This document shows positions 1-11,107 of a stretch of 11,461 bases of DNA, one piece after another. Origin of the DNA: a virus; the UHGV virus genome UHGV-1556960; one strand, written 5' to 3'. Position numbers and translations under genes: made by a program. Every line of letters starts with the position of its first letter. The first letter of the stretch is position 1. The notes beneath the pieces were generated by a model. It saw nothing but the letters and a program-made list of their open reading frames with translations, made no database searches and had not been told where the DNA came from.

Positions 1-41
1 GAAGCCACTGGAGCACCTCAAAAACACCATCATACACTAAA

Positions 42-638
42 TCAGTAAGTTGGCAACATCACCTTCTTGATGATGTTTATATATGACGCTATCAGCGATG
101 AGTCATCACGACTATCCACTTCACAAGCCATTGCCCTGATGTAGTCGGCGCTGGCAACGTTGTTGTATTCCGTCGCAAAGCAACATAGTAACGTCAGAAC
201 ATGCTCTGTCGTTATTTCGCTCCAGTTGATGTTGAAAAATTCATCGCCTTTTTTATCGTGTTCGGAATCGAAGATGCTTTGGTGGAGGATGTATTTGCCG
301 GATTCCTTGCGCGGTAACTTGATTGCTTTCTGGCGTTCTAGCTCCTTATAAATCTGCATTGCCTCAATTAGTACCGGCCTGCCGTTCATGAAGGGATCGC
401 GCAACCTTACACGCTGGCCAACTCGACCAGTAATAAAGCTGTTTTCCTCTTCCACCAGCACGATAAAACCCTTTTCCTCTTTTTCTCGCAATTCGCGCAG
501 CAGCTGGAGTTCCATATCGCGGCGGCGTTCAGGGTAGCTGGTCCGCTCAGCCATTATCAGCTCGTTATTGATCCATGCCGCAGTCATTGACGCCGGTTTG
601 CCGACGCTCATCGAAACAACGCATATTTTCTTATCCAT
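42..638 (-). CDS. mat: Mat-position protein (P1 maturation control gene location); start at the ATG at 636-638 preferred over the longer track ORF
   Basis: Minus-strand ORF directly downstream of ref, as in P1 gene order cre-cra-hxr-ref-mat. ATG at 636-638 is preceded by an AGGGGG Shine-Dalgarno. The track ORF 42..785 starts at a GTG and would read through a terminator-like hairpin. Identity inferred from position, not from recognised sequence. Confidence 0.55.
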   Translation of the reverse strand: MDKKICVVSMSVGKPASMTAAWINNELIMAERTSYPERRRDMELQLLRELREKEEKGFIVLVEEENSFITGRVGQRVRLRDPFMNGRPVLIEAMQIYKELERQKAIKLPRKESGKYILHQSIFDSEHDKKGDEFFNINWSEITTEHVLTLLCCFATEYNNVASADYIRAMACEVDSRDDSSLIASYINIIKKVMLPTY

Positions 639-650
639 AGCGCCCCCTAC

Positions 651-676
651 AAAAAAGAAAAGCCACCAGCGGCGGC
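651..676 (-). terminator. Intrinsic terminator-like hairpin plus U-run downstream of ref, immediately before the mat start
   Basis: Minus-strand RNA reads GCCGCC-GCU-GGUGGC (one G-U pair) followed by UUUUCUUUUUU; mat SD and ATG follow within about 12 nt. Confidence 0.45.
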
Positions 677-827
677 TTAGCAATACAACTGAAGGTAGCG
701 CCCGGTACTCAGACTGTGCCGTCCATGGAATATTTGAAAAGGGATCCATCCGTACCGGGCATGTGATGATTCTGACTGAAGTCACTTGTCAGTTGTCAAT
801 CATTTATCATTAAAAATAATATATTTA

Positions 828-1388
828 TTAGTGCATGATGTTTGCCATCTCATAGGCGTCAGCCAGTAACTCCATCTCTGACTTGTTCAGCAGGGTGAAT
901 TCTTTCTTGCCTCCAACCACACCATCGGCATGAACAGGGACCAGCCAGGGGTATTTTGCTCTAACTTCAGCCGGTGCTGCATGCTGGTGGTGCCATCTAC
1001 AAAGTGGCAATTGCTTTTTATGACAACCCGGCGCGGTACGACCGGCGATATGGTGCAGAGACACCTCATTAGATATTACTCCATGCATATAGCAGGCAAT
1101 GCAGGGGAGAGTGCCAAGAGCATTGGCGATGCGCCGTTCCTCCGCCGTTGGTGTTCTCCCCTTCAAGCCACGAGATTTTATTTTTACCGCGCTTTTCCGC
1201 GTTTTGCTGGCTGGTGGGCGCTCTTTCTGTTTAGCGATACGGCGGTCGATAGTATCCCGCATTTTCTGATATTGAGATTCTCGCCAGACCGGATCAGCCA
1301 ACTTCTCCCGTTGCCGAGCGATCGCTCGTTCTCTGGCTGCCTTCTGCCACTTGCGGCACTGTTCAATTTTTTGTTCGATTGTTTTCAT
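828..1388 (-). CDS. ref: Ref, RecA-dependent HNH-type nuclease (recombination enhancement function), 186 aa
   Basis: 186-aa ORF at the position ref occupies in P1, with an HNH-like Cys/His cluster (CIACYMHG...HHIAG...CHKK...CRWHHQH) in the C-terminal half. Length matches my recollection of P1 Ref. No obvious SD upstream of the ATG. Confidence 0.85.
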   Translation of the reverse strand: MKTIEQKIEQCRKWQKAARERAIARQREKLADPVWRESQYQKMRDTIDRRIAKQKERPPASKTRKSAVKIKSRGLKGRTPTAEERRIANALGTLPCIACYMHGVISNEVSLHHIAGRTAPGCHKKQLPLCRWHHQHAAPAEVRAKYPWLVPVHADGVVGGKKEFTLLNKSEMELLADAYEMANIMH

Positions 1389-1394
1389 ATGGTC

Positions 1395-1420
1395 AAAAAA
1401 AAGGCGGCCTAATGGCCGCC
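1395..1420 (-). terminator. Strong intrinsic terminator in the ref leader, ending 6 nt before the ref ATG
   Basis: Minus-strand RNA GGCGGCC-AUUA-GGCCGCC (7-bp GC stem) followed by U8, then GACCAU and the ref AUG. Confidence 0.6.
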
Positions 1421-1476
1421 TATGATGTCAAGGAGTGAAGTAATGGCAACGTCTTCGTAGTTGACAAAAACTGCGG

Positions 1477-1510
1477 CTCAATTATAGCAACCAATTAGAG
1501 CAATTAAAGT
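1477..1510 (-). promoter_or_regulatory. Candidate ref promoter with overlapping C1 operator-like sites (Op2a/Op2b position)
   Basis: Minus-strand reads ...ACTTTAATTGCTCTAATTGGTTGCTATAATTGAG. ATTGCTCTAAT matches the C1 operator core; a consensus TATAAT -10 lies at plus coordinates 1481-1486 with a second partial operator (TTGCTATAAT) overlapping it. Confidence 0.5.
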
Positions 1511-1610
1511 TGTTTATTTATCGCGAATCACATTTTTTCACTTCAGTACCTGTGTGCTATACTCCTTCTTGATTGATTGGATGCGGAATACAAACCCGCT
1601 CTTTTGTGCA

Positions 1611-1640
1611 GCCTGGCTCCTTGCCAGGCTTTTTTTTATT
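1611..1640 (+). terminator. Plus-strand intrinsic terminator-like hairpin (antisense to the cre operon), abutting the stop of the 103-aa ORF
   Basis: GCCTGGC-TCCTT-GCCAGGC followed by T8 on the plus strand. A smaller hairpin (GCGG-N9-CCGC then TCTTTTGT) sits just upstream at about 1583-1606. Confidence 0.4.
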
Positions 1641-1947
1641 TCATCATGGAAGCTGTTAACGCTTTGGACCTTGCTGAACTGATTGAGAGGGCTTTGTCAA
1701 CGTGCCCCAAAAATTCGCCAAACTCAGACATCACTTTAGCAAAACCGCGCCGTGCTTCTTCCTCGGTGGCATTCATCACGAAATGTTCAGCACCACGCAT
1801 ACTTTTGACAGGGAACGCAACGGATATTGAATCAATATCAGGCATTCTATCGCTCAGCTTTACAGTGACAATGACGGCTGGCGACTGAATATTAGTGCTT
1901 ACAGACAGCACTACATATTTTCCGTCGATGTTGAAATCCTTTCTCAT
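1636..1947 (-). CDS. Hypothetical 103-aa protein downstream of cre (position of P1 hxr); function not recognisable from sequence
   Basis: Minus-strand ORF with a GGTGA SD 3 nt before the ATG and a C1 operator-like site directly upstream. No helix-turn-helix motif is obvious to me, so the hxr assignment is positional only. Confidence 0.5.
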   Translation of the reverse strand: MRKDFNIDGKYVVLSVSTNIQSPAVIVTVKLSDRMPDIDSISVAFPVKSMRGAEHFVMNATEEEARRGFAKVMSEFGEFLGHVDKALSISSARSKALTASMMK

Positions 1948-1963
1948 ATGTCACCATAAATAT

Positions 1964-1980
1964 CAAAGAATTAGAGCAAT
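1964..1980 (-). promoter_or_regulatory. C1 operator-like site between the cre stop and the 103-aa ORF
   Basis: Minus-strand ATTGCTCTAATTCTTTG matches the 11-nt operator core exactly (13/17 against ATTGCTCTAATAAATTT). Confidence 0.45.
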
Positions 1981-1997
1981 CATTTACGCGTTAATGG

Positions 1998-3029
1998 CTA
2001 ATCGCCATCTTCCAGCAGGCGCACCATTGCCCCTGTTTCACTATCCAGGTTACGGATATAGTTCATGACAATATTTACGTTGGTCCAGCCACCAGCTTGC
2101 ATGATCTCCGGTATTGAAACTCCGGCACGGGCCATATCTCGCGCGGCTCCGACACGGGCACTGTGTCCAGACCAGGCCAGGTACCTCTGGCCAGAGTCAT
2201 CCTTAGCCCCGTAAATCAATCGGTGAGTTGCTTCAAAAATCCCTTCCAGGGCGCGAGTTGATAGCTGGCTGGTGGGTGATGGCGAGGCAACACCATTTTT
2301 TCTGACCCGGCAAAACAAGTAGTTATTCGGATCATCAGCCACACCAGAGACAGAAATCCATCGCTCGACCAGTTTAGTTACCCCTAGGCTAAGTGCCTTC
2401 TCTACACCTGCGGTGCTAACCAGCGTTTTCGTTCTGCCAATATGGATTAACATTCTCCCACCGTCAGTACGTGAGATATCTTTAACCCTGATCCTGGCAA
2501 TTTCGGCTATACGTAACAGGGTGTTATAAGCAATCCCCAGAAATGCCAGATTACGTATATCCTGGCAGCGATCGCTATTTTCCATGAGTGAACGAACCTG
2601 GTCGAAATCAGTGCGTTCGAACGCTAGTGCCTGTTTTGCACGTTCACCGGCATCAACGTTTTCTTTTCGGATCCGCCGCATAACCAGTGAAACAGCATTG
2701 CTGTCACTTGGTCGCGGCAGCCCGGACCGACGATGAAGCATGTTTAGCTGGCCCAAATGTTGCTGGATAGTTTTTACTGCCAGACCGCGCGCCTGAAGAT
2801 ATAGAAGATAATCGCGAACATCTTCAGGTTCTGCGGGAAACCATTTCCGGTTATTCAACTTGCACCATGCCGCCCATGACCGGCAAACGGACAGAAGCAT
2901 TTTCCAGGTATGCTCAGAAAACGCCTGGCGATCCCTGAACATGTCCATCAGGTTCTTGCGAACCTCATCACTCGTTGCATCGACCGGCAATGCAGGCAAA
3001 TTTTGGTGTACGGTCAGTAAATTGGACAT
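1998..3029 (-). CDS. cre: Cre tyrosine site-specific recombinase, 343 aa
   Basis: Translation matches the Cre sequence I know essentially end to end (MSNLLTVHQNLPALPVDATSDEVRKNLMDMFRDRQAF ... MVRLLEDGD). Catalytic residues R173, K201, H289, R292, W315 and Y324 are at their expected positions. loxP lies about 420 bp upstream. Confidence 0.97.
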   Translation of the reverse strand: MSNLLTVHQNLPALPVDATSDEVRKNLMDMFRDRQAFSEHTWKMLLSVCRSWAAWCKLNNRKWFPAEPEDVRDYLLYLQARGLAVKTIQQHLGQLNMLHRRSGLPRPSDSNAVSLVMRRIRKENVDAGERAKQALAFERTDFDQVRSLMENSDRCQDIRNLAFLGIAYNTLLRIAEIARIRVKDISRTDGGRMLIHIGRTKTLVSTAGVEKALSLGVTKLVERWISVSGVADDPNNYLFCRVRKNGVASPSPTSQLSTRALEGIFEATHRLIYGAKDDSGQRYLAWSGHSARVGAARDMARAGVSIPEIMQAGGWTNVNIVMNYIRNLDSETGAMVRLLEDGD

Positions 3030-3036
3030 TTGACAC

Positions 3037-3258
3037 TCAGATAATGGTTTTAAGTAAAGTGTACAGGATCGGCTCTGCCTTTACCTGTTTATGGTTCTCG
3101 TCATAGAAACGCCAACGACCGCGACTGCGTTCTATCTTTTCTTCACCGCGCGATAATGACAGTTGACAACTATCACGATCAAACCCTTTTGCCCGCCAGT
3201 AACCACGATTTTTCTCAAGCTCAAGATGAGTGGACACTTTAGCAGCTGAATATCCCAT
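3037..3258 (-). CDS. cra: Small 73-aa ORF between loxP and cre, 7 nt upstream of the cre start (cra position)
   Basis: Minus-strand 73-aa ORF (MGYSAAKVSTHLELEKNRGYWRAKGF...) ending 7 nt before the cre ATG. Assigned from its position relative to loxP and cre. Confidence 0.55.
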   Translation of the reverse strand: MGYSAAKVSTHLELEKNRGYWRAKGFDRDSCQLSLSRGEEKIERSRGRWRFYDENHKQVKAEPILYTLLKTII

Positions 3259-3354
3259 TTTTCACCTCTGATTGATTGGTGGAGCTAAGTGCGCTACGCG
3301 AAATCTGGAGCACTAACACTGCCAACATTTCGCAGATTTTACGTAGCGCAACCT

Positions 3355-3429
3355 TGATCAAATGATCAAGTGATCACTATTTGACCCGACAAGGTATTGA
3401 ACTGTATGGATTTACAGGTAAATTGATCA
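3355..3429. promoter_or_regulatory. cre/cra upstream regulatory region with four TGATCA hexamers (each carrying a Dam GATC site)
   Basis: TGATCA at 3355-3360, 3363-3368, 3371-3376 (8-bp register) and 3424-3429. The P1 cre promoter region is known to be Dam-methylation sensitive. Confidence 0.5.
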
Positions 3430-3447
3430 TGTTCAATAACCCTTAAG

Positions 3448-3481
3448 ATAACTTCGTATAATGTATGCTATACGAAGTTAT
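3448..3481 (-). other. loxP: loxP recombination site (34 bp: two 13-bp inverted arms and an 8-bp spacer)
   Basis: Exact ATAACTTCGTATA-ATGTATGC-TATACGAAGTTAT. The spacer is the reverse complement of the canonical GCATACAT, so the site (and the window) is inverted relative to the conventional P1 orientation. Confidence 0.98.
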
Positions 3482-3524
3482 CAGGTCCGAAGAGGAGTTT
3501 ACGTCCAGCTGCGCACAAAAATCA

Positions 3525-3541
3525 AGAATTATTAGAGCAAT
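3525..3541 (-). promoter_or_regulatory. C1 operator (Op99-type, distal, reverse orientation)
   Basis: Plus strand AGAATTATTAGAGCAAT is 15/17 against the reverse complement of ATTGCTCTAATAAATTT. Confidence 0.6.
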
Positions 3542-3601
3542 AAATTTTGAAAGAAAAATCCCACTCCACCAGCTAAAAACTGGATTGTTTTTCATAGTTG
3601 T

Positions 3602-3630
3602 TTGACAATTGCTCTAATAAATTATAGTTT
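3602..3630 (+). promoter_or_regulatory. Promoter with embedded C1 operator upstream of coi-c1
   Basis: TTGACA (3602-3607) is followed directly by ATTGCTCTAATAAATTA (3608-3624, 16/17 to consensus), with a TATAGT/ATAGTT -10-like element overlapping the operator's 3' end. Confidence 0.6.
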
Positions 3631-3862
3631 TGCCGCCGTTACGTAATACGACTTTGGATTCACTATTTAATGTGTCTTCAGCGTTGTAGAGCGGCTCAGA
3701 AGGAAATGAGCAAACAGGGAAACCTTATATAACGGCATTACAGCTATGCATTGCTCATCTTACACACAGCGCAATGTTGTTAGATTACCCCAGCATGGAT
3801 CATGGGTGAAACAGTAGGTCAGAGCTTCAGGCTCTGTGTTGTCAATACAGTGAGGCATAATT

Positions 3863-4072
3863 ATGGCTTTCATTCAACCAACCATCGACGACGTTAGACA
3901 TTGCTCTAACGCTTTATCTGTAGACCCTGCCGAAACCGACGCTGCCCGCGCCATTGCTGAACACTACTCAAAGATATCCAATCAGGAGTACCGCATCACC
4001 CAAGACGACCTGGATGACCTCACTGACACAATCGAATATCTCATGGCAACTAACCAGTTAGACTCACAATAA
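3863..4072 (+). CDS. coi: Coi, C1 inactivator, 69 aa
   Basis: 69-aa ORF immediately upstream of c1 on the same strand, with a GTGAGG SD. Size and position match P1 coi. Confidence 0.85.
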   Translation: MAFIQPTIDDVRHCSNALSVDPAETDAARAIAEHYSKISNQEYRITQDDLDDLTDTIEYLMATNQLDSQ

Positions 4073-4115
4073 ATGCACTAATAAATCTATTATTTTTGTT
4101 TGATCCCTCTATAAT
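4072..4115 (+). promoter_or_regulatory. c1-proximal C1 operator variant plus TATAAT -10 (autoregulatory promoter region)
   Basis: AAATGCACTAATAAATCT (4072-4088; 14/17 to consensus, GCAC core variant) overlaps the coi stop codon. A consensus TATAAT lies at 4110-4115, and GGAGGAGG precedes the c1 ATG. Confidence 0.5.
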
Positions 4116-4182
4116 ATAGGTCAGTAATGACCGGTTTTCTCAGCCGGGCGTTATTGACCATGTCAATTCTGGAGGAGGATCA

Positions 4183-5034
4183 ATGATAAATTATGTCTAC
4201 GGCGAACAACTGTACCAGGAGTTCGTCAGCTTCAGGGATCTCTTTCTAAAAAAAGCTGTTGCACGCGCCCAACACGTTGATACAGCCAGCGACGGTCGTC
4301 CTGTACGCCCGGTTGTCGTTCTACCGTTCAAAGAAACTGACAGCATTCAGGCTGAAATTGATAAATGGACTTTAATGGCGCGGGAACTGGAACAGTACCC
4401 AGACCTCAATATCCCAAAGACTATTTTATATCCAGTGCCTAACATCCTTCGCGGTGTGCGTAAGGTTACAACTTATCAGACAGAAGCTGTGAACAGCGTC
4501 AACATGACCGCTGGCCGCATTATTCATCTGATTGATAAGGACATTCGCATCCAAAAAAGCGCGGGGATCAATGAGCACAGTGCGAAATACATAGAGAACC
4601 TGGAAGCAACAAAAGAGCTAATGAAGCAGTACCCGGAGGATGAAAAATTCCGTATGCGCGTACACGGCTTTAGCGAAACAATGCTGCGCGTCCACTACAT
4701 TTCCAGTAGCCCTAACTACAATGATGGTAAATCAGTTAGTTACCATGTGCCACTGTGTGGCGTGTTTATCTGCGATGAAACTCTCCGTGATGGAATTATC
4801 ATCAACGGTGAATTCGAAAAAGCAAAATTTAGCCTTTATGACTCCATAGAACCGATCATCTGCGACCGCTGGCCGCAAGCAAAAATATATCGCCTGGCAG
4901 ATATTGAAAATGTAAAAAAACAAATTGCCATCACTCGCGAAGAGAAAAAGGTTAAGTCAGCCGCATCAGTTACGCGCAGCCGTAAAACCAAGAAGGGGCA
5001 GCCAGTAAACGACAACCCCGAAAGCGCGCAATAA
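4183..5034 (+). CDS. c1: C1 repressor of lysis (primary immunity repressor), 283 aa
   Basis: 283-aa ORF downstream of coi; size and N-terminus (MINYVYGEQLYQEF...) match P1 C1 as I recall it. Its cognate operator 17-mers are scattered through the window. Confidence 0.93.
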   Translation: MINYVYGEQLYQEFVSFRDLFLKKAVARAQHVDTASDGRPVRPVVVLPFKETDSIQAEIDKWTLMARELEQYPDLNIPKTILYPVPNILRGVRKVTTYQTEAVNSVNMTAGRIIHLIDKDIRIQKSAGINEHSAKYIENLEATKELMKQYPEDEKFRMRVHGFSETMLRVHYISSSPNYNDGKSVSYHVPLCGVFICDETLRDGIIINGEFEKAKFSLYDSIEPIICDRWPQAKIYRLADIENVKKQIAITREEKKVKSAASVTRSRKTKKGQPVNDNPESAQ

Positions 5035-5039
5035 ATTAT

Positions 5040-5057
5040 GCCCGGCATCAACCGGGC
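5040..5057. terminator. Hairpin between the convergent c1 and ant genes (candidate bidirectional terminator)
   Basis: GCCCGG-CATCAA-CCGGGC, flanked by A/T-rich sequence on both sides, between the c1 stop (5034) and the ant stop (5067). Confidence 0.45.
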
Positions 5058-5066
5058 ATTCTTCCA

Positions 5067-6182
5067 TTATTCAGCCGCCACCGGTTTTAACAAGCCAGCA
5101 TCGAGCAGTTTACGCGTCAACCACTGTTGGCCTTTCCCCGTTAATTGGGGCGTCAGCCGTATCTGGTAGCCCTCTTCATCATCCAGCACCACTTCTTTCA
5201 CTGTGAAATATCCGGCGTTTATGTACTGCTGGAACGGCACATTTTTACGTCCACCGGACGCAATCAGAATGCCGTTCTCCCGTAACCAGGCAAACAGCGC
5301 ATTTTGTTTAAGTCCAACGACCTTTGCAAAATTCCCAATCAGGATCCCCTTAGCCACTGATACCCGGTCGGCAAAATCGACTTTGGGGGCTGCGGCCACC
5401 AGCTGCTGATTTAGCTGATGGGCTTTCTGTTCCAGAAGTTGCTTTTGTTCAGCCAGTTCGGCAGCAAGGCGCAGAGCTTCTGGAAGCGTCTGGGGGATTG
5501 CGATCGGTTGCTGTTCTTTTTGTCGGAAGTAGCTGTCTTCCAGTTTTTCAAAGAATGCCCATGCCTGATCGGTTTCGATCATTTTAGCGTGGCGGGCTGC
5601 GCCGCGTTCCGTCCAGAGGATGAGTGAGCGGGCTTTAGGAGAGATAGGATTTTGTGAGTTACTTAAAGTCACCCGCAAATTGTTCAAATCATCTCCAATA
5701 ACTTTATAGAAATGCTTGCCTTCACAAAAACGTTCAGCATTACGGGAAAAGTTCTTCTTGATGTTATCCGCATCTGTCCCATACCCCTTAGCAAGGATCT
5801 TAGTTGTCACTACACGCACTCCCAGCCATTCCAGAACGGGAATTTCATCAGACTGATTCTGAACAACCACCAGCTCCGATTCCTGAACTGAAGGTGCATG
5901 AGTTTTTTCTGATTTAACGTTAGTTGCTTTCATTCTGTGTGCCTCCTTGCGTGTTTCGGCTGCGACGGTTGCGTAATTCAGATGCCCCTGTTCGAGCAGG
6001 TATTCGCGGATATCAGACAACAGAATGCGGTGAACAGCGTTCTTGTCCTTTCTCCGGTAAAGTTGTTTGGTGATCATGAAGTAGTTGGCAATAACGCCCG
6101 GTATATCCCTGGTACTGATACAGGATGTGTGCTGTTCAATTGCCTCAATCATTTCTTCACGGGTGACTAATGACGTTCTCAT
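5067..6182 (-). CDS. ant1: Antirepressor (Ant1/Ant2-type), 371 aa, with an in-frame internal start giving a nested 288-aa product
   Basis: The C-terminal region (...FADRVSVAKGILIGNFAKVVGLKQNALFAWLRENGILIASGGRKNVPFQQYINAGYF...) looks like a phage antirepressor KilAC/ANT domain, and the middle resembles a Bro-N/ORF6N-type domain. The start overlaps the icd stop (ATGA), with AGGAGGG in the icd 3' end. An in-frame ATG at 5931-5933 is preceded by AAGGAGG; the two products would be about 41 and 32 kDa, as described for P1 Ant1/Ant2. Confidence 0.8.
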   Translation of the reverse strand: MRTSLVTREEMIEAIEQHTSCISTRDIPGVIANYFMITKQLYRRKDKNAVHRILLSDIREYLLEQGHLNYATVAAETRKEAHRMKATNVKSEKTHAPSVQESELVVVQNQSDEIPVLEWLGVRVVTTKILAKGYGTDADNIKKNFSRNAERFCEGKHFYKVIGDDLNNLRVTLSNSQNPISPKARSLILWTERGAARHAKMIETDQAWAFFEKLEDSYFRQKEQQPIAIPQTLPEALRLAAELAEQKQLLEQKAHQLNQQLVAAAPKVDFADRVSVAKGILIGNFAKVVGLKQNALFAWLRENGILIASGGRKNVPFQQYINAGYFTVKEVVLDDEEGYQIRLTPQLTGKGQQWLTRKLLDAGLLKPVAAE

Positions 6183-6400
6183 AGTCCCTCCTGAGCAGAA
6201 GCGTTAACAGGGAGGCACCAGTAACTGAGAGAGTTGCGCGAATCAGTGGAAAAGCGGGCAGAGAAAATGCAGGGAGCGTCAGGAAGCTGAGAACGGGCCT
6301 CATCTTCTGTCGGTGCAATAACGAAGTGATAGTGACGTTTCTGGCAGGAATAGAAGCGCCAAATGAATTCAGGATGAGTTGGGGTAGGGACAGTAGCCAT
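6179..6400 (-). CDS. icd: Icd-like small protein (cell division inhibitor family), 73 aa, translationally coupled to ant
   Basis: 73-aa ORF with an AGGAGG SD 8 nt upstream; its stop overlaps the ant start by 4 nt. Architecture matches the P1 immI icd-ant pair. Confidence 0.65.
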   Translation of the reverse strand: MATVPTPTHPEFIWRFYSCQKRHYHFVIAPTEDEARSQLPDAPCIFSARFSTDSRNSLSYWCLPVNASAQEGL

Positions 6401-6430
6401 AATGGCAGCCTCCTTTGACTAAGTTAAGGA

Positions 6431-6720
6431 GCTACCGCGTGAGGTCTCAATCTCAATGGCGGTAGCACTGACTGGGTTGAGACTACCGGCGTCAAAGGGA
6501 ACCGGCCTGCCTTTCGGCAGCCCAGCCAGCACTACCATTGATTTCGGAGCTAAACGCTACGTATGGCTGTGCGATGGCATGACACAAAAAAAGACGCTTT
6601 CGGCGTCTGTGTCGCCTTTGACATTATCCGGGGTCTCAATCCCGGCACCCGTTTTACTGAGGTGCCTGATAAGCATAAACCGAAAATGCCTCAAGGCGCA
6701 AGAGGTCAGGCTCAATGTAA
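6431..6720 (-). ncRNA. Leader/small-RNA region of the icd-ant operon with c4-like antisense features; exact RNA ends not determinable
   Basis: On the minus-strand transcript: a hairpin with UUGAGAC in its loop (plus 6628-6645), an intrinsic terminator (plus 6585-6608), the complementary GUCUCAA (plus 6477-6483), and an 8-bp-stem hairpin with AUUGAGAUUGAGACC in its loop (plus 6431-6466) about 30 nt before the icd SD. Confidence 0.4.
6585..6608 (-). terminator. Intrinsic terminator inside the icd-ant leader
   Basis: Minus-strand RNA AGACGC-CGAAA-GCGUCU followed by U7. Confidence 0.55.
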
Positions 6721-6739
6721 CATCGGTAGTTAAAAAACA

Positions 6740-6756
6740 CAATTTATTAGAGCAAA
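6740..6756 (-). promoter_or_regulatory. C1 operator at the head of the icd-ant operon (Op51-like function), just after the pacB stop
   Basis: Plus strand CAATTTATTAGAGCAAA is 15/17 against the reverse complement of the operator consensus. Confidence 0.6.
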
Positions 6757-6759
6757 TAT

Positions 6760-8244
6760 TCATTCATTAAGCCATGCCAGAGCTTCATCAACCTGCGCTT
6801 CGTCTTCGACGCTAAGCACTTCATCCTGGGGAACATAATCCGCCAGCATAGCGAAACAATATGTATCCCAATGGTCTGGTGAGTGCAGGTTGAGTTTTTT
6901 CTTCATATCCTCCTTACTCATCACCTTCCATTGACCTGCGGAGTTAATCCCTACAGGGATTTTCGACGCTTCCTCAATAGTTTCATTACCCTTATCCAGT
7001 CTCATACGACCAGATTTTACGGCCTCTGCGGCTTGAACGTTGGCATAAGCACGTTTATCAAAGTACAGGCTCTTATCTTCACGGCTATGCATCTTTTTAC
7101 CCCAGCGTATACGCTGTACGGTAATACCATAATACTCGTACATCAGATCCGCCGTTGCTTTACCCAGGCCATCGCCGTCTATCGCTATGGTGATATTGGG
7201 GAATCGCTCAGGATTACATTCTGCGAAAATTTTGGCGGCAAGCTGCGTTTCTGTAACGTCTGTGTATTCCAGCATTCGATAGTTGATTACACGGCGTTTA
7301 TTTCGCTGGCCGGACACCATCATGATATTGATAACGGACTTATCCCGTCCTGTACCACCAGCAACGTCCACACATGCAAGCCAGCCCCATCCTTTGGCAA
7401 TCTTGACTTTCCGCCGCGTCGCACGTTCAACCTCATCACGTCCAAGAAGGAATCCGTCCTGTGATTTAGGGAATAGGCCGCGTACCTTAATCATGTACAT
7501 AGGGTTATCACGCCCGCCGTACTCCGCCAGCTTCATTTTGATAAATTCTGGCGTTACCAGCGGTGATTCCTCACTATTAAGCGTGATCGCCGTATAAACG
7601 CCATCTGGGTTACCAGGACGCTTGGCCAGTTTATGGTGAGTATCGTAGAAATAGCCGCTTGGGCGTGTAGGCTGTGACAGTAATAAGATGCGGTTATCCT
7701 GTCCGGTAAGAGCACCGGTGATGATACCGAAAGCTCTATCACTGACACCGGAGGCTTCATCGATAATATACAGAAGATGATCTGCGTGTTCACCGGCGAG
7801 AGCTTCTTCACTTCCCAGACGAAAGCCCTTCGGTACTACAGTCCATACACCTTTACCAGTAACCTCATAGAAAGCGGTTTCTGTCAGAACAAAATAATCA
7901 GCAAGCCATGGAAAACGGCTGGTGGCAGTAGCCCAGTTTATCTTGATGTACTTGAATATACCGGTCATTACCTGCTGAATTTTGTTCGCAACGATAATGG
8001 CTCGGGCACCGGGATACATGATTATGAACAACATGATCATGATAGAAGTCATGTCTGATTTCCCGGTACCGTGGCCAGACGAAACAGATGTCTTGCTACC
8101 CTGTTCCTGCACAGACTCAATAATCAGATCCTGCTGCCAGGTAGGTGTTTTGCCGAACAAAACATCAGCGGCCGCAATCCAGTCATAACGATATAGCGCC
8201 ACCAGCTCGCGCCAACGTGGATCCGTTACGCAACTTCTGGCCAT
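6760..8244 (-). CDS. pacB: PacB, terminase large (ATPase/nuclease) subunit, 494 aa
   Basis: 494-aa ORF directly downstream of pacA with a 1-nt stop/start overlap. Walker A-like GHGTGKS and Walker B-like [10 protein letters not shown] motifs are present. Size matches P1 PacB. Confidence 0.9.
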
Positions 8245-9437
8245 TAATCATCATCCCCGTATAGCTTGCGGGTAACTTCTTCGTCTTCCTCCTCGTCTTC
8301 GTCCAGGTCTTGTTCCAGCCATGGGTCGTTTGATACACCTTCAGTATCAACATCTCCATAACCGCCTGTATCAACGATATCGGCGATTTCTTCCCTACGC
8401 TGCTCAATCCACAATGCGGCATCGGCGCGGCGGTTGGCGGCCCGTTCTCGTGCGATTTTATCCAGATCTTCAAGTGATGGAGCGCCAGATGCTGTTTGGT
8501 TTTCCTCATCATCGGTATTGGTCTTAGGAGCACGCAGATCGGCTTTGATTTGCTCCAGCATCAGGGGCGGCACTTTCCCGCCATGCGCCTCGATGAATTC
8601 AGCTGCTTCCAGCACTGACCAGTTATTTTCACGCTTTCGTTCGTATGCCAGCTTAACAATGCCAGCTTGCCCCATAGACAAAGCGTGCTTTTCCGCCTCC
8701 CGGCTTTCTTTTCGATAGTTATTCCGGATGCTGTAAATGGTGTTGATCAGGCTGCTTATCTGCGCGGAACAGCTGTTTAGCATGCTCGCGATACGGTATT
8801 CAGGCGGAGTACCTTCATCATCGTCTTTTTGCTGATCGCGCATTTCCTGCACCAGGCGAATACACGTATCCCTGGCGTTCTCCAGCATAAGGAGATGAGA
8901 AAGAGACTTTTCCAGAAGAGTGGTTTCCAGAACATCGGCCCCGGACCGACGCAACATAGCGCGCGCGGCCTTCCGCGCTTCAACGTTATCTATCAGGTAA
9001 TCGCCAGCTTCGAATTCAAAGCGTTCACCATCATCATCCAGGGTGTCGCGTTCCAGGCGATCACGTAAGGTCCGGTGGGCGCGGGTGATCACGTCATGAT
9101 CATCTGAACGATCATTTATGCGCTTATTTTGGCGCTTCGCATTCTCGACTGCGGCACTGACAACGGCATTAACTCTCTGTTTTTCCGCTATTTCAGCCGC
9201 AATATGATCACCTGCATGTTGATCATTAGAGTGATCAATGATCATGCTTTTTAGTGGCTTCCTGACTGGCTTATTTGGCTTGCGGCTGTCCGCAGTCCTG
9301 GTGTCTTCTTTGAAGGCACGGAGATAACGACGTGCGGTATTAGGGTTAAGATTAAACTCGGCGGCATACTGTGCGATGGTGTAACCACCATCTCGCGCCA
9401 GGCGAGCAAAATTCTTCTTGTGATCGTCCCAGGTCAC
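8244..9437 (-). CDS. pacA: PacA, terminase small / pac-recognition subunit, 397 aa, GTG start
   Basis: 397-aa ORF containing the pac hexamer cluster in its 5' part. Acidic C-terminal tail. GTG start at 9435-9437 preceded by AAGGAAG and an in-frame TAA. Confidence 0.9.
9086..9244. other. pac: pac packaging site: 3 + 4 TGATCA/G hexamers flanking a roughly 90-bp core
   Basis: Hexamers at 9086-9091, 9097-9102 and 9109-9114 (reverse orientation), then 9205-9210, 9220-9225, 9232-9237 and 9239-9244. Each contains a Dam GATC. The 7-hexamer, roughly 160-bp layout inside pacA matches the described P1 pac site. Confidence 0.85.
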
Positions 9438-9522: not shown

Positions 9523-9975
9523 TCAGATACGTGCGGATGTGGCATTACCGTAATGACGGTGCTGACGGGCCACCTTATTGAAAAGTTGACGCGCCATTAC
9601 CCAAGGCTGGTGCTCCCGGCGTTCCTTTTCGTCCTGCGTCATATAGAGTTCGTTCTGGAGTTTTTCATCAAACCGGCGCGGAGCGCGGCTGCGGCGAAAG
9701 AATTCAGGATTCAGAGAGTGGATCTGAAATCTACGTGGGCGTGTACTGTCATCAATCAAAACAGACGAATACTTAGACACAGCGATAGCCTTTAAGCGCA
9801 GATAAACATCGCGCTTATCGACATCCAGATGCGGGTATTCCTTTTCAAGGATTGCTGCGAGTTCTTTCGCTGATAGAAGAGATTTAGTGCGGATCATGTA
9901 ATCCGCAATCTCATACGATGTAATTCGTGAGTGATTTATTTCCATGAAGTGGCGTCCCTGCCAGTTAAGTAACAT
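9523..9975 (-). CDS. lpa: Lpa-position protein (late promoter activator), 150 aa
   Basis: 150-aa basic ORF immediately upstream of pacA with a GGTGA SD, preceded by a promoter carrying a C1 operator. Assigned by position and size. Confidence 0.65.
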   Translation of the reverse strand: MLLNWQGRHFMEINHSRITSYEIADYMIRTKSLLSAKELAAILEKEYPHLDVDKRDVYLRLKAIAVSKYSSVLIDDSTRPRRFQIHSLNPEFFRRSRAPRRFDEKLQNELYMTQDEKERREHQPWVMARQLFNKVARQHRHYGNATSARI

Positions 9976-10012: not shown

Positions 10013-10062
10013 CGACGAATATAATACCCTCGATTAAATAAATGGCAATACATTAGAGCAAT
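10013..10062 (-). promoter_or_regulatory. lpa promoter with overlapping C1 operator
   Basis: Minus strand ATTGCTCTAATGTATTG (plus 10046-10062; 14/17) overlaps a TTGCCA -35, with TATTAT as -10 after a 16-nt spacer. Lies between the stop of the 347-aa ORF and lpa. Confidence 0.5.
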
Positions 10063-10063
10063 T

Positions 10064-11107
10064 TTATCTAACGCTCGACGAGTGACTTGTGATAACGCCG
10101 ACTCCAAGCGCGTAATCAAAGAACAATCGTTGATGCATCGCCAGCCTACCGTGCGTCTTCTCCCAATTATCGCGGTCACGCTCAATATCACGCTGGCATG
10201 ACTGGCACAGAGGAATTGCGTAAATGTCATGCGCGCATAATCGACTATGACGAACGATATAAGGCGTAATGCGAGCGCCAGCTCCCGCAGCTCCACATCC
10301 ACAGCACGGACGGGAAGCAACAAAGTCCATGTACTCGGGTAATTTTAGCGATTGCAGTTTTGGTATTTTGAAATGCGCCGTGCCAGGGTCGGAGTCAACA
10401 TCCACAGGGCATACTTTTGCACGCATCGGCGCGGCGCGTTCTTCCATCATCTGAACATATGCTGTAGCGCGATCGTCATACGGGCGAATATCCGCCTCTT
10501 TCAAAGGTCCGCTATCCTGCGGAGCAGCCTTCATCTTATTTATTGATATGCGGCAGACTTCTTCCGGCATCAGGTGCATCATGTTGCGCATGAAAGCCCA
10601 CCAGCACAGCTCCTGAATACTTAAATCATGGCTATTTGAAAGGCCCATTTCCTGACGGGCGACATCCAGTATCCAGTTAACGCGATTATTATGCAGCGTT
10701 TCTTTCAGCTCATTAAAACCACGCATCCGGTAATGGTTATCGTGATGCCAGCACAACAACACCGCGCTATTGTCTCGTTCTGCGTGGACAATATGGTTGT
10801 CACACCAGCTACGATCTGCGGCCTGGCATTGCCCCTCTTTCCTGCGCAACCACGCCACCAGCGAGTCAATTCCACCAATACGGCGAAACAGTTCATCGCT
10901 GTTAAAAAACGGCTGCAACGCCTCATTTGTTGCCATGGTTTGCTCGGTAACAACGAGGCCGTCTTCCATGTGCTCGATTAACTCACGCGGCACCGGCTCC
11001 ATAATAAATTTACGGCCAGCCTCCACCAGCTTTCTGACCTCCTGATCCACTTTGAACGTGGCGAGGCCAAGCTCTTTCTGTACAAAGGGAGTAATTACGG
11101 CTTTCAC
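10064..11107 (-). CDS. 347-aa Cys/His-rich protein at the P1 PdcB position; possible HNH/DUF968-type nuclease-like protein
   Basis: Long minus-strand ORF with an AAAGGTG SD. Contains [23 protein letters not shown] and a C-terminal CCGCG...C..H..C..C cluster. Family assignment is tentative. Confidence 0.65.

Follow-up and report, generated by a model that had tools for sequence, protein, structure and literature searches.

A predicted second immI-type antirepressor module between pacB and c1 in P1-like phage-plasmids

Introduction

Immunity in phage P1 is usually taught as the opposition of one repressor, C1, and one antirepressor circuit, immI. The immI products Ant1 and Ant2 bind and inactivate C1, the C4 antisense RNA is cut out of a precursor, and the antisense specificity of immI explains the heteroimmunity of P1 and P7. 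In the P1 reference genome (NC_005856) the canonical locus (Oc4, c4, icd, ant1/2) lies at 48.1-49.7 kb and is followed by kilA and repL. Here we describe an immI-type module at a different place, between pacB and c1, in UHGV virus genome UHGV-1556960. The stretch of DNA analysed (the window; 11,461 nucleotides, to which all positions below refer) is a segment of a P1-like (Punavirus) phage-plasmid in reversed orientation relative to the P1 map, as judged from its map of open reading frames (ORFs) and its matches to annotated genomes. We propose, with a probability of roughly 0.8, that the module is a working second immI switch, with C1 acting at its promoter, its own C4 RNA acting at the ribosome binding site (RBS) of icd and translationally coupled Ant1/Ant2 products, and that it would operate independently of the canonical immI.

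Another described system that bears on this locus is IsrK of prophage Gifsy-1, in which partial read-through of the IsrK terminator yields a short RNA plus a longer transcript, orf45 is coupled to the antirepressor gene anrP through an ATGA overlap, and an RNA of ~80 nt is processed from orf45 (Hershko-Shalev et al. 2016, PMC4825925). Translation of anrP rises about 140-fold when the short IsrK RNA is provided in trans. The published model has IsrK inducing a switch in mRNA structure, and neither 'phage P1' nor 'icd' occurs as a term in the paper (PMC4825925). A second c4/icd region has been noted in pYU39_89, a D6-like plasmid (PMC6799933), and the insertion between pacB and c1 is mentioned by Venturini et al. 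2019 (PMC6906374).

Results

Homology between the window and P1 ends exactly at the stop codon of c1 and restarts exactly at the stop codon of pacB. In P1 the two genes are separated by a spacer of only 24 bp (pacB ends at 93206 and c1, on the complementary strand, starts at 93231), so that 1725 bp replace this spacer in the window. A first-pass annotation, made from the sequence alone, had assumed a P1 map with immI beside kilA-repL and with c1 following pacB fairly directly; this map was correct, and the reference P1 genome has no icd-ant segment between pacB and c1. All of the elements which that annotation had listed between 5035 and 6759 were found there, on the minus strand (Table 1), with ant converging on c1 and with 3 nt separating the stop codon of pacB (6762-6760) from the operator. 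The stop codons of c1 (5034) and ant (5067) leave 32 bp between them, in which a GC-rich hairpin is a probable terminator for the convergent genes. Neither direct repeats nor a target-site duplication were seen at the junctions, and no transposase, integrase or other mobility gene adjoins the module. Recombinational replacement is for these reasons more likely than transposition as its origin.

Whether the module is a relocated or a second immI had been left undecided on the first pass, and related genomes speak for the second of these. RCS47 (NC_042128) carries a copy that is 98% identical over all 1725 bp and is likewise flanked by pacB and c1, diverged versions occupy this site in JL22 and vB_EcoM-673R5, and the same insertion is found in pTZ20_1P and many other P1-like plasmids too. 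RCS47, JL22 and vB_EcoM-673R5 all keep the canonical c4-icd-ant1/2-kilA locus, 94-97% identical to that of P1. The closest whole relative, pPEC145_2 (98.0% identity over 99% of the window), has the module plus canonical icd-ant-kilA-repL at 28.6-31.7 kb. Given this co-occurrence, which is a direct observation in the relatives, the module is best read as a second immI in addition to the canonical one and not as a relocated copy.

The arrangement that the first-pass annotation had pointed out is real, but it is also widespread and on record (RCS47; PMC6906374). A query of 2401 bp spanning both junctions was covered to at least 80% by 284 PLSDB plasmids, mostly from Escherichia with some from other enterobacterial genera, and the order pacB-module-c1 was seen in 48 of the 77 IMG/VR loci that encode close relatives of the window Ant. 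At least 80% of the whole window was covered by 456 E. coli genomes, a figure that does not give the prevalence of the module and is silent on the presence of the insert, since 85% of the window is backbone. The RCS47 record annotates 'ant' (FDJ53_gp039) at this site, with no icd, C4 or leader RNA. In the literature covered, to which the original genome papers of RCS47 and D6 did not belong, we found no description of the insert as an entire immI that has a C4 specificity of its own, of cassettes at three or more further sites in P1-like genomes, or of recognition sequences varying in many a/b combinations. The insertion between pacB and c1 is common, already recorded and sparsely annotated, and what we contribute is interpretation rather than discovery.

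The anatomy of the module can be read directly from the window. A C4 antisense RNA gene is encoded in the leader of the same transcript as icd and ant, sites a1 and b1 lie upstream of c4, and sites a2 and b2 lie downstream of it with b2 over the icd RBS, all as expected of a P1-type immI. The C4 loops are complementary to a1/b1 and to a2/b2, and the layout of a2 and b2 is that of the annotated a2/b2 sites of P1. A structured leader had been noted on the first pass and is present, its isrK-type RNA being followed by the C4 RNA; it belongs not to the P1 type but to the isrK type known from lambdoid prophages. The Rfam model c4-a1b1 (RF03163) was below threshold in the window and the leader was recognized by the isrK model instead (59.5 bits), whereas the P1 leader scores 51 bits with c4-a1b1 and 35 bits with isrK. 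These models overlap on the P1 leader and also in Gifsy-1 (locus L091, NC_010392, 34131-34329; isrK 79 bits, c4-a1b1 48 bits). Both models therefore describe one element, and the 'isrK-like RNA' of the module is the a1/b1 leader.

RefSeq/PGAP places a 39-aa 'ash family protein' at about 6420-6539 (minus strand; 6303-6422 in locus L006), almost wholly inside the C4 gene, and the name recurs in dozens of PLSDB plasmids. Probably a non-coding RNA gene has here been annotated as a protein.

Typing of C4 specificity in nine modules and then in about 80, drawn from loci L001-L089 and including that of the window, gave at least 14 a/b combinations. Complementarity and covariation were observed directly: across the modules compared, any change in the C4 loops is matched in all four targets. 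Among modules with an isrK-type leader (n = 55, including the window) there are five a/b types, every member having all four sites, and the type of the window (UUGAGAC / GUCAAAGG) has eight members, the window counted. Modules with a P1-type leader have two a variants (UUGACAG and UUAGCAG) and five b variants, seen in nine combinations, two of which are the P1 type (UUGACAG/GUUAGUG) and the P7 type (UUAGCAG/GAUUGUG). Between P1 and P7 there are two base differences in each of a and b, which account for the heteroimmunity of the two phages. Relative to P1 the window type has two bases changed in a and at least three in b, and relative to P7 the number is higher. In RCS47 the canonical module is of the P7 type and the pacB-c1 module is of the window type. 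The modules of JL22 and vB_EcoM-673R5 have b or a/b specificities different from that of the window. The a and b elements appear to reassort independently, as judged for example from the canonical module of pPEC145_2, which joins the a of P7 to the b of the D6 module at 20 kb. Since the C4 loops and all four targets of the module differ from the P1 and P7 types and from other canonical ones, the two circuits of one genome should not cross-regulate, and the data fit the consequence for immunity specificity that the first-pass annotation had foreseen. We regard the persistent compensatory change of loops and targets as the best evidence that the module is functional.

The 73-aa icd-like ORF was recognized as such on the first pass, and its identity to P1 Icd agrees with this (Table 1). 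Its stop codon overlaps the start of ant as ATGA, read directly from the sequence and kept in 74 of 76 related modules, and through this overlap icd and ant are predicted to be translationally coupled, as in a P1-type immI. The 371-aa product of ant proved homologous to P1 Ant. Its C-terminal ~145 residues (KilAC/ANT) are about 90% identical to P1 Ant and include the ANT/KilAC domain that marks the family (PF03374; 107.7 bits, residues 259-360), and its N-terminal 83 residues, which are Ant1-specific, are about 60% identical to P1 Ant1. The middle is not conserved with P1 Ant1: the window protein has a central ORF6N domain (Pfam, 66 bits), whereas P1 Ant1 matches ANT only and has no Pfam domain in this part. 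An internal in-frame start with a strong Shine-Dalgarno sequence had also been proposed. It corresponds to M84, which aligns with the ant2 start of P1 (in P1, AAAGGAGGCACATAGAATG) and is conserved in 75 of 76 related modules; the nested Ant1/Ant2 starts of a P1-type immI are thus predicted here too. Icd, C1 and PacB were all without a match in the Pfam search; NCBIfam recognized Icd and C1.

The C1 operator claimed for the head of the module is there as a predicted site with two mismatches to the consensus, and its position corresponds to that of Oc4/Op51 in P1, at the putative promoter of the operon as expected of a P1-type immI. Five matches to the 17-mer consensus with up to three mismatches occur in the window against 0.03 expected, and within the same limit the operator is found in ~70 of 74 related modules at a near-constant 333-358 nt upstream of icd. 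The other four matches in the window, at 3525-3541 and 10046-10062 on the minus strand and at 3608-3624 and 4072-4088 on the plus strand, surround coi/c1/cra and lie just upstream of lpa, consistent with Oc1 and Olpa of the P1 record; they indicate that the immC and lpa control regions of the window are intact. Several IMG/VR cassettes with a P1-type leader have at their head a bivalent palindromic C1 operator, ATTGCTCTAATAAATTTGATTTATTAGAGCAAAT, the left half of which is a perfect consensus, in contrast to the single operator of the pacB-c1 module with its 15 of 17 positions.

Two putative promoters follow. The first overlaps the operator and would be analogous to P2c4/P51a of P1, the -35 of which overlaps Oc4. 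Its hexamers are invariant among relatives, but the whole head is highly conserved, so that this carries little weight. The second would initiate at ~6665 and be analogous to P1c4/P51b; the putative -10 ends 7 nt upstream of 6665, where the Rfam isrK match starts.

Further immI-type cassettes were seen at other places among the IMG/VR loci. The ref region, from window position ~836 to ~1397 (837-1396), is replaced in L027, L035, L081 and L089 by a cassette that has icd and a P1-type leader, and the Ant of which is of the ORF6N type and shares 86-89% identity with that of the window; a cassette also lies next to window position ~115 in L038 and L048. The first 117 positions of the window belong to a variable part of the P1-like backbone, and most close relatives align only from ~113-129 onward. 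In L069 an isrK-type cassette occupies the canonical site beside kilA. Several contigs carry two or three cassettes, for example UViG_2698536372_000019 (L066, L073 and L089). In L073 (positions 1-5247 of that contig) the module occurs twice in tandem after pacB, a match to window positions 9203-5215 being followed directly by a match to 6803-5505, which is either a real duplication or an assembly artefact.

Table 1. Features of the module and of the neighbouring genes in the window.
Feature	Position	Strand	Evidence or remark
Module under study (immI-type)	5035-6759	-	1725 bp
C1 operator TTTGCTCTAATAAATTG	6740-6756	-	3 nt past pacB stop codon; 15/17 positions as in consensus ATTGCTCTAATAAATTT (2 mismatches)
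Putative promoter overlapping operator	6714-6742	-	-35 TTGTGT 6742-6737, 17-nt spacer, -10 TACATT 6719-6714
Putative second promoter	6672-6701	-	-35 TTGCGC 6701-6696, 18-nt spacer, -10 TATGCT 6677-6672
isrK-type leader RNA	6587-6665	-	Rfam RF01394, 59.5 bits (gathering score 50)
Target a1 UUGAGAC	6633-6639	-	in hairpin loop of leader
Target b1 GUCAAAGG	6615-6622	-	single-stranded stretch of leader
Intrinsic terminator ending leader	6592-6608	-	terminator scan; stem then T run
C4 antisense RNA gene	6455-6542	-	Rfam RF01695, 75.4 bits, E 1.2e-13, full-length (gathering score 45)
C4 element b' CCUUUGAC	6491-6498	-	second loop
C4 element a' GUCUCAA	6477-6483	-	just past second loop
icd-ant mRNA target region	6409-6450	-	read directly from sequence
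Target a2 UUGAGAC	6444-6450	-	
Target b2 GUCAAAGG	6412-6419	-	overlaps icd Shine-Dalgarno
icd Shine-Dalgarno GGAGG	6409-6413	-	8 nt before icd ATG
icd homologue, 73 aa	6179-6400	-	80% identical to P1 Icd; NF033153 49.8 bits
ant1-like antirepressor gene, 371 aa	5067-6182	-	BLASTP against P1 Ant1 54% identity, E 3e-128
Nested ant2-like reading frame, 288 aa	5067-5933	-	from M84 (ATG 5933-5931); AAGGAGG 8 nt upstream
GC-rich hairpin between ant and c1, probable terminator	5038-5059	.	terminator-like site, 9 pairs, 6 G-C
cre	1998-3029	-	
cra	3037-3258	-	
coi	3863-4072	+	
c1 repressor gene	4183-5034	+	convergent downstream flank of module; NF041318 (phage_rep_C1) 611.6 bits
pacB	6760-8244	-	upstream flank, strand shared with module; RCS47 annotates pacB at the equivalent place
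pacA	8244-9437	-	
lpa	9523-9975	-	
pdcB	10064-11107	-	

Discussion

We propose that the module acts in the following way. Transcription would start from one or both of the promoters at the head, the upstream one of which overlaps the C1 operator and, by analogy with Op51/P51a of P1, would be shut in a lysogen. The transcript would first form the isrK-type leader with a1, b1 and the intrinsic terminator, giving a short RNA together with some read-through, and the read-through RNA would contain the C4 antisense RNA. Pairing of the C4 loops with a2 and b2 just upstream of icd would cover the icd Shine-Dalgarno sequence and leave icd untranslated, and as ant starts inside the icd stop codon, ant1 and ant2 would be silent along with it. 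When C4 is absent or titrated, for instance immediately upon infection or through the a1/b1 leader RNA, Icd would be made together with the nested Ant1/Ant2 products, and Ant would then inactivate the C1 repressor, as its homology with P1 Ant suggests. The C4 of a resident canonical locus would not silence the module, nor would the C4 of the module silence the canonical locus, which would give two independent antirepressor circuits for one repressor. Promoter activity, processing of the RNA, binding of Ant to C1 and orthogonality in vivo are what we infer from the sequence in this scheme.

Four observations weigh against it. The window is only 11.5 kb long, so that the canonical immI of its own replicon is deduced from relatives that are ~98% identical. 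A generic sigma-70 consensus scan of 4950-6850 found no promoter at the head of the module, and because it called none the module promoters are proposed only by analogy with P1. Late transcription of pacA-pacB would enter the module directly, with no terminator before the operator, and the leader terminator is the only one in the path of this transcript through the module; given this read-in, the regulation of the module may differ from that of the canonical immI. Finally, the central ORF6N third of Ant has no counterpart in P1 Ant, so that binding to C1 is not guaranteed.

The last of these points leads to an alternative in which the cassette is regulated as described, but Ant has a target other than C1, namely a co-resident lambdoid repressor or DNA, reached through the ORF6N domain in the manner of Roi or Rha. 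In that case the role of the module would be in cross-talk among mobile elements or in inhibiting cell division through Icd. The central domain itself, absent from P1 Ant, would fit this, as would the annotation of the JL22 and vB_EcoM-673R5 proteins as 'Roi DNA-binding protein' and the company that the isrK-C4 leader keeps elsewhere: it drives a Rha-type regulator in D6, lies beside genes annotated as Rha-family or regulatory in lambdoid Stx phages, and in Gifsy-1 belongs to a homologous module which controls that prophage's own antirepressor (PMC4825925). Set against this are the two ends of the protein, the Ant1-specific N-terminus and the ~90% identical C-terminus, which are conserved with P1 Ant, the retained signals for nested Ant1/Ant2 expression, the C1 operator that heads the module and the adjoining c1 gene. 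We consider a target other than C1 unlikely. Taking the conserved ends together with the Ant1/Ant2 arrangement and the operator, Ant probably acts on C1, and the ORF6N domain may leave room for a different or additional target.

Lower still is the chance that the canonical immI has merely been moved and that the replicon has a single immI, now between pacB and c1. The window alone cannot show a second locus, and among the 40 PLSDB plasmids listed two (H63 and H64) show one matching place, so that some relatives may have only the pacB-c1 copy. A simple move is nevertheless hard to reconcile with the canonical c4-icd-ant-kilA-repL locus kept by RCS47, JL22, vB_EcoM-673R5 and pPEC145_2. In addition, the isrK-type leader is only distantly related to the P1-type leader and the middle domain of Ant differs, which argues for a different cassette rather than a transposed copy. 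It is scarcely credible that the segment has no current function, as inert cargo or as what is left, in decay, of a recombination event. P1 itself lacks the module and so completes its life cycle without it, but no reading frame is broken, the architecture is kept in the 284 PLSDB plasmids and 48 IMG/VR loci, and compensatory changes preserve the complementarity of C4 and its targets across five types, as expected under selection and not under decay.

The reading of the module as a second, independently regulated immI would matter beyond the window. A large share of natural P1-like plasmids, many of which carry resistance genes, would have a second circuit of different antisense specificity, and should both circuits target C1, the combination of C4 types, and not a single type, would govern exclusion and induction when P1-like elements circulate together. 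This would bear on the stability and spread of P1-like plasmids and on the use of P1-derived delivery vectors in wild E. coli strains in which such elements may already be present. To P1 specialists, the cassettes should be of moderate interest for their orthogonal specificity and their combinatorial diversity at several sites. More tentatively, and with rather less than even odds, P1-like phage-plasmids may stack two or three orthogonal immI cassettes with combinatorially reshuffled C4 elements as an 'immunity barcode', the leader serving as a decoy for C4. The sites, on the same tentative footing, would be sim-kilA, pacB-c1, the place of ref and possibly that beside window position 115. If this were true, the barcode would decide which superinfecting relatives derepress a genome and which residents it can overcome, the isrK-type leader as decoy for its own C4 would set the switching threshold, and IsrK/orf45 of Gifsy-1 would be recast as an a1b1-C4 pair.

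Of the described systems, the immI loci of P1 and P7 are closest in the order of their parts, which run as in the module from a C1 operator through the a1/b1 leader, C4 and a2/b2 to icd and ant, with b2 over the icd Shine-Dalgarno sequence, ATGA coupling and a nested Ant2 start. The difference in map position, between the sim genes and kilA-repL in P1 and P7 and between pacB and c1 here, concerns the canonical locus and not its mechanism; the leader class and the ORF6N domain of Ant are further differences. The insertion in RCS47 shows no structural difference of note and is the same element. D6 has two c4-icd-antirepressor modules, of which that at 75 kb shares 91-94% identity with the window over the leader, C4 and the 5' end of icd; it lies between pmgF and ref, drives a Rha-type protein of 313 aa and has GCAAAAGG as its b element.

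At a greater distance stand the cassettes of lambdoid phages. The leader and C4 DNA of the module is ~69% identical to cassettes of more than 100 lambdoid Stx phages, some records of which annotate 'isrK' beside 'C4', and in Stx phage F039 loops and targets are again complementary, in a further sequence type. As in the module, the Gifsy-1 and Stx cassettes have an IsrK-type RNA with an intrinsic terminator, then a C4-family RNA, then a short ORF or a regulator, the RBS of which is covered by the b target. Unlike the module, the lambdoid versions have no icd and drive a shorter antirepressor (AnrP of Gifsy-1) or a different regulator (F039 and other Stx phages). The window also has the features of the Gifsy-1 type, in which a two-hairpin IsrK-like RNA ends in a terminator and is followed by a small ORF coupled to an antirepressor. 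In Gifsy-1 itself the 'orf45' stretch, which separates isrK from anrP, matches C4 antisense RNA with 69 bits, and the Gifsy-1 IsrK system looks like an immI-type module of a1b1, C4 and antirepressor. The experiments on Gifsy-1 are the nearest experimental evidence for how the leader in the window may work, and they are consistent with competition between the a1/b1 RNA and the a2/b2 sites for C4.

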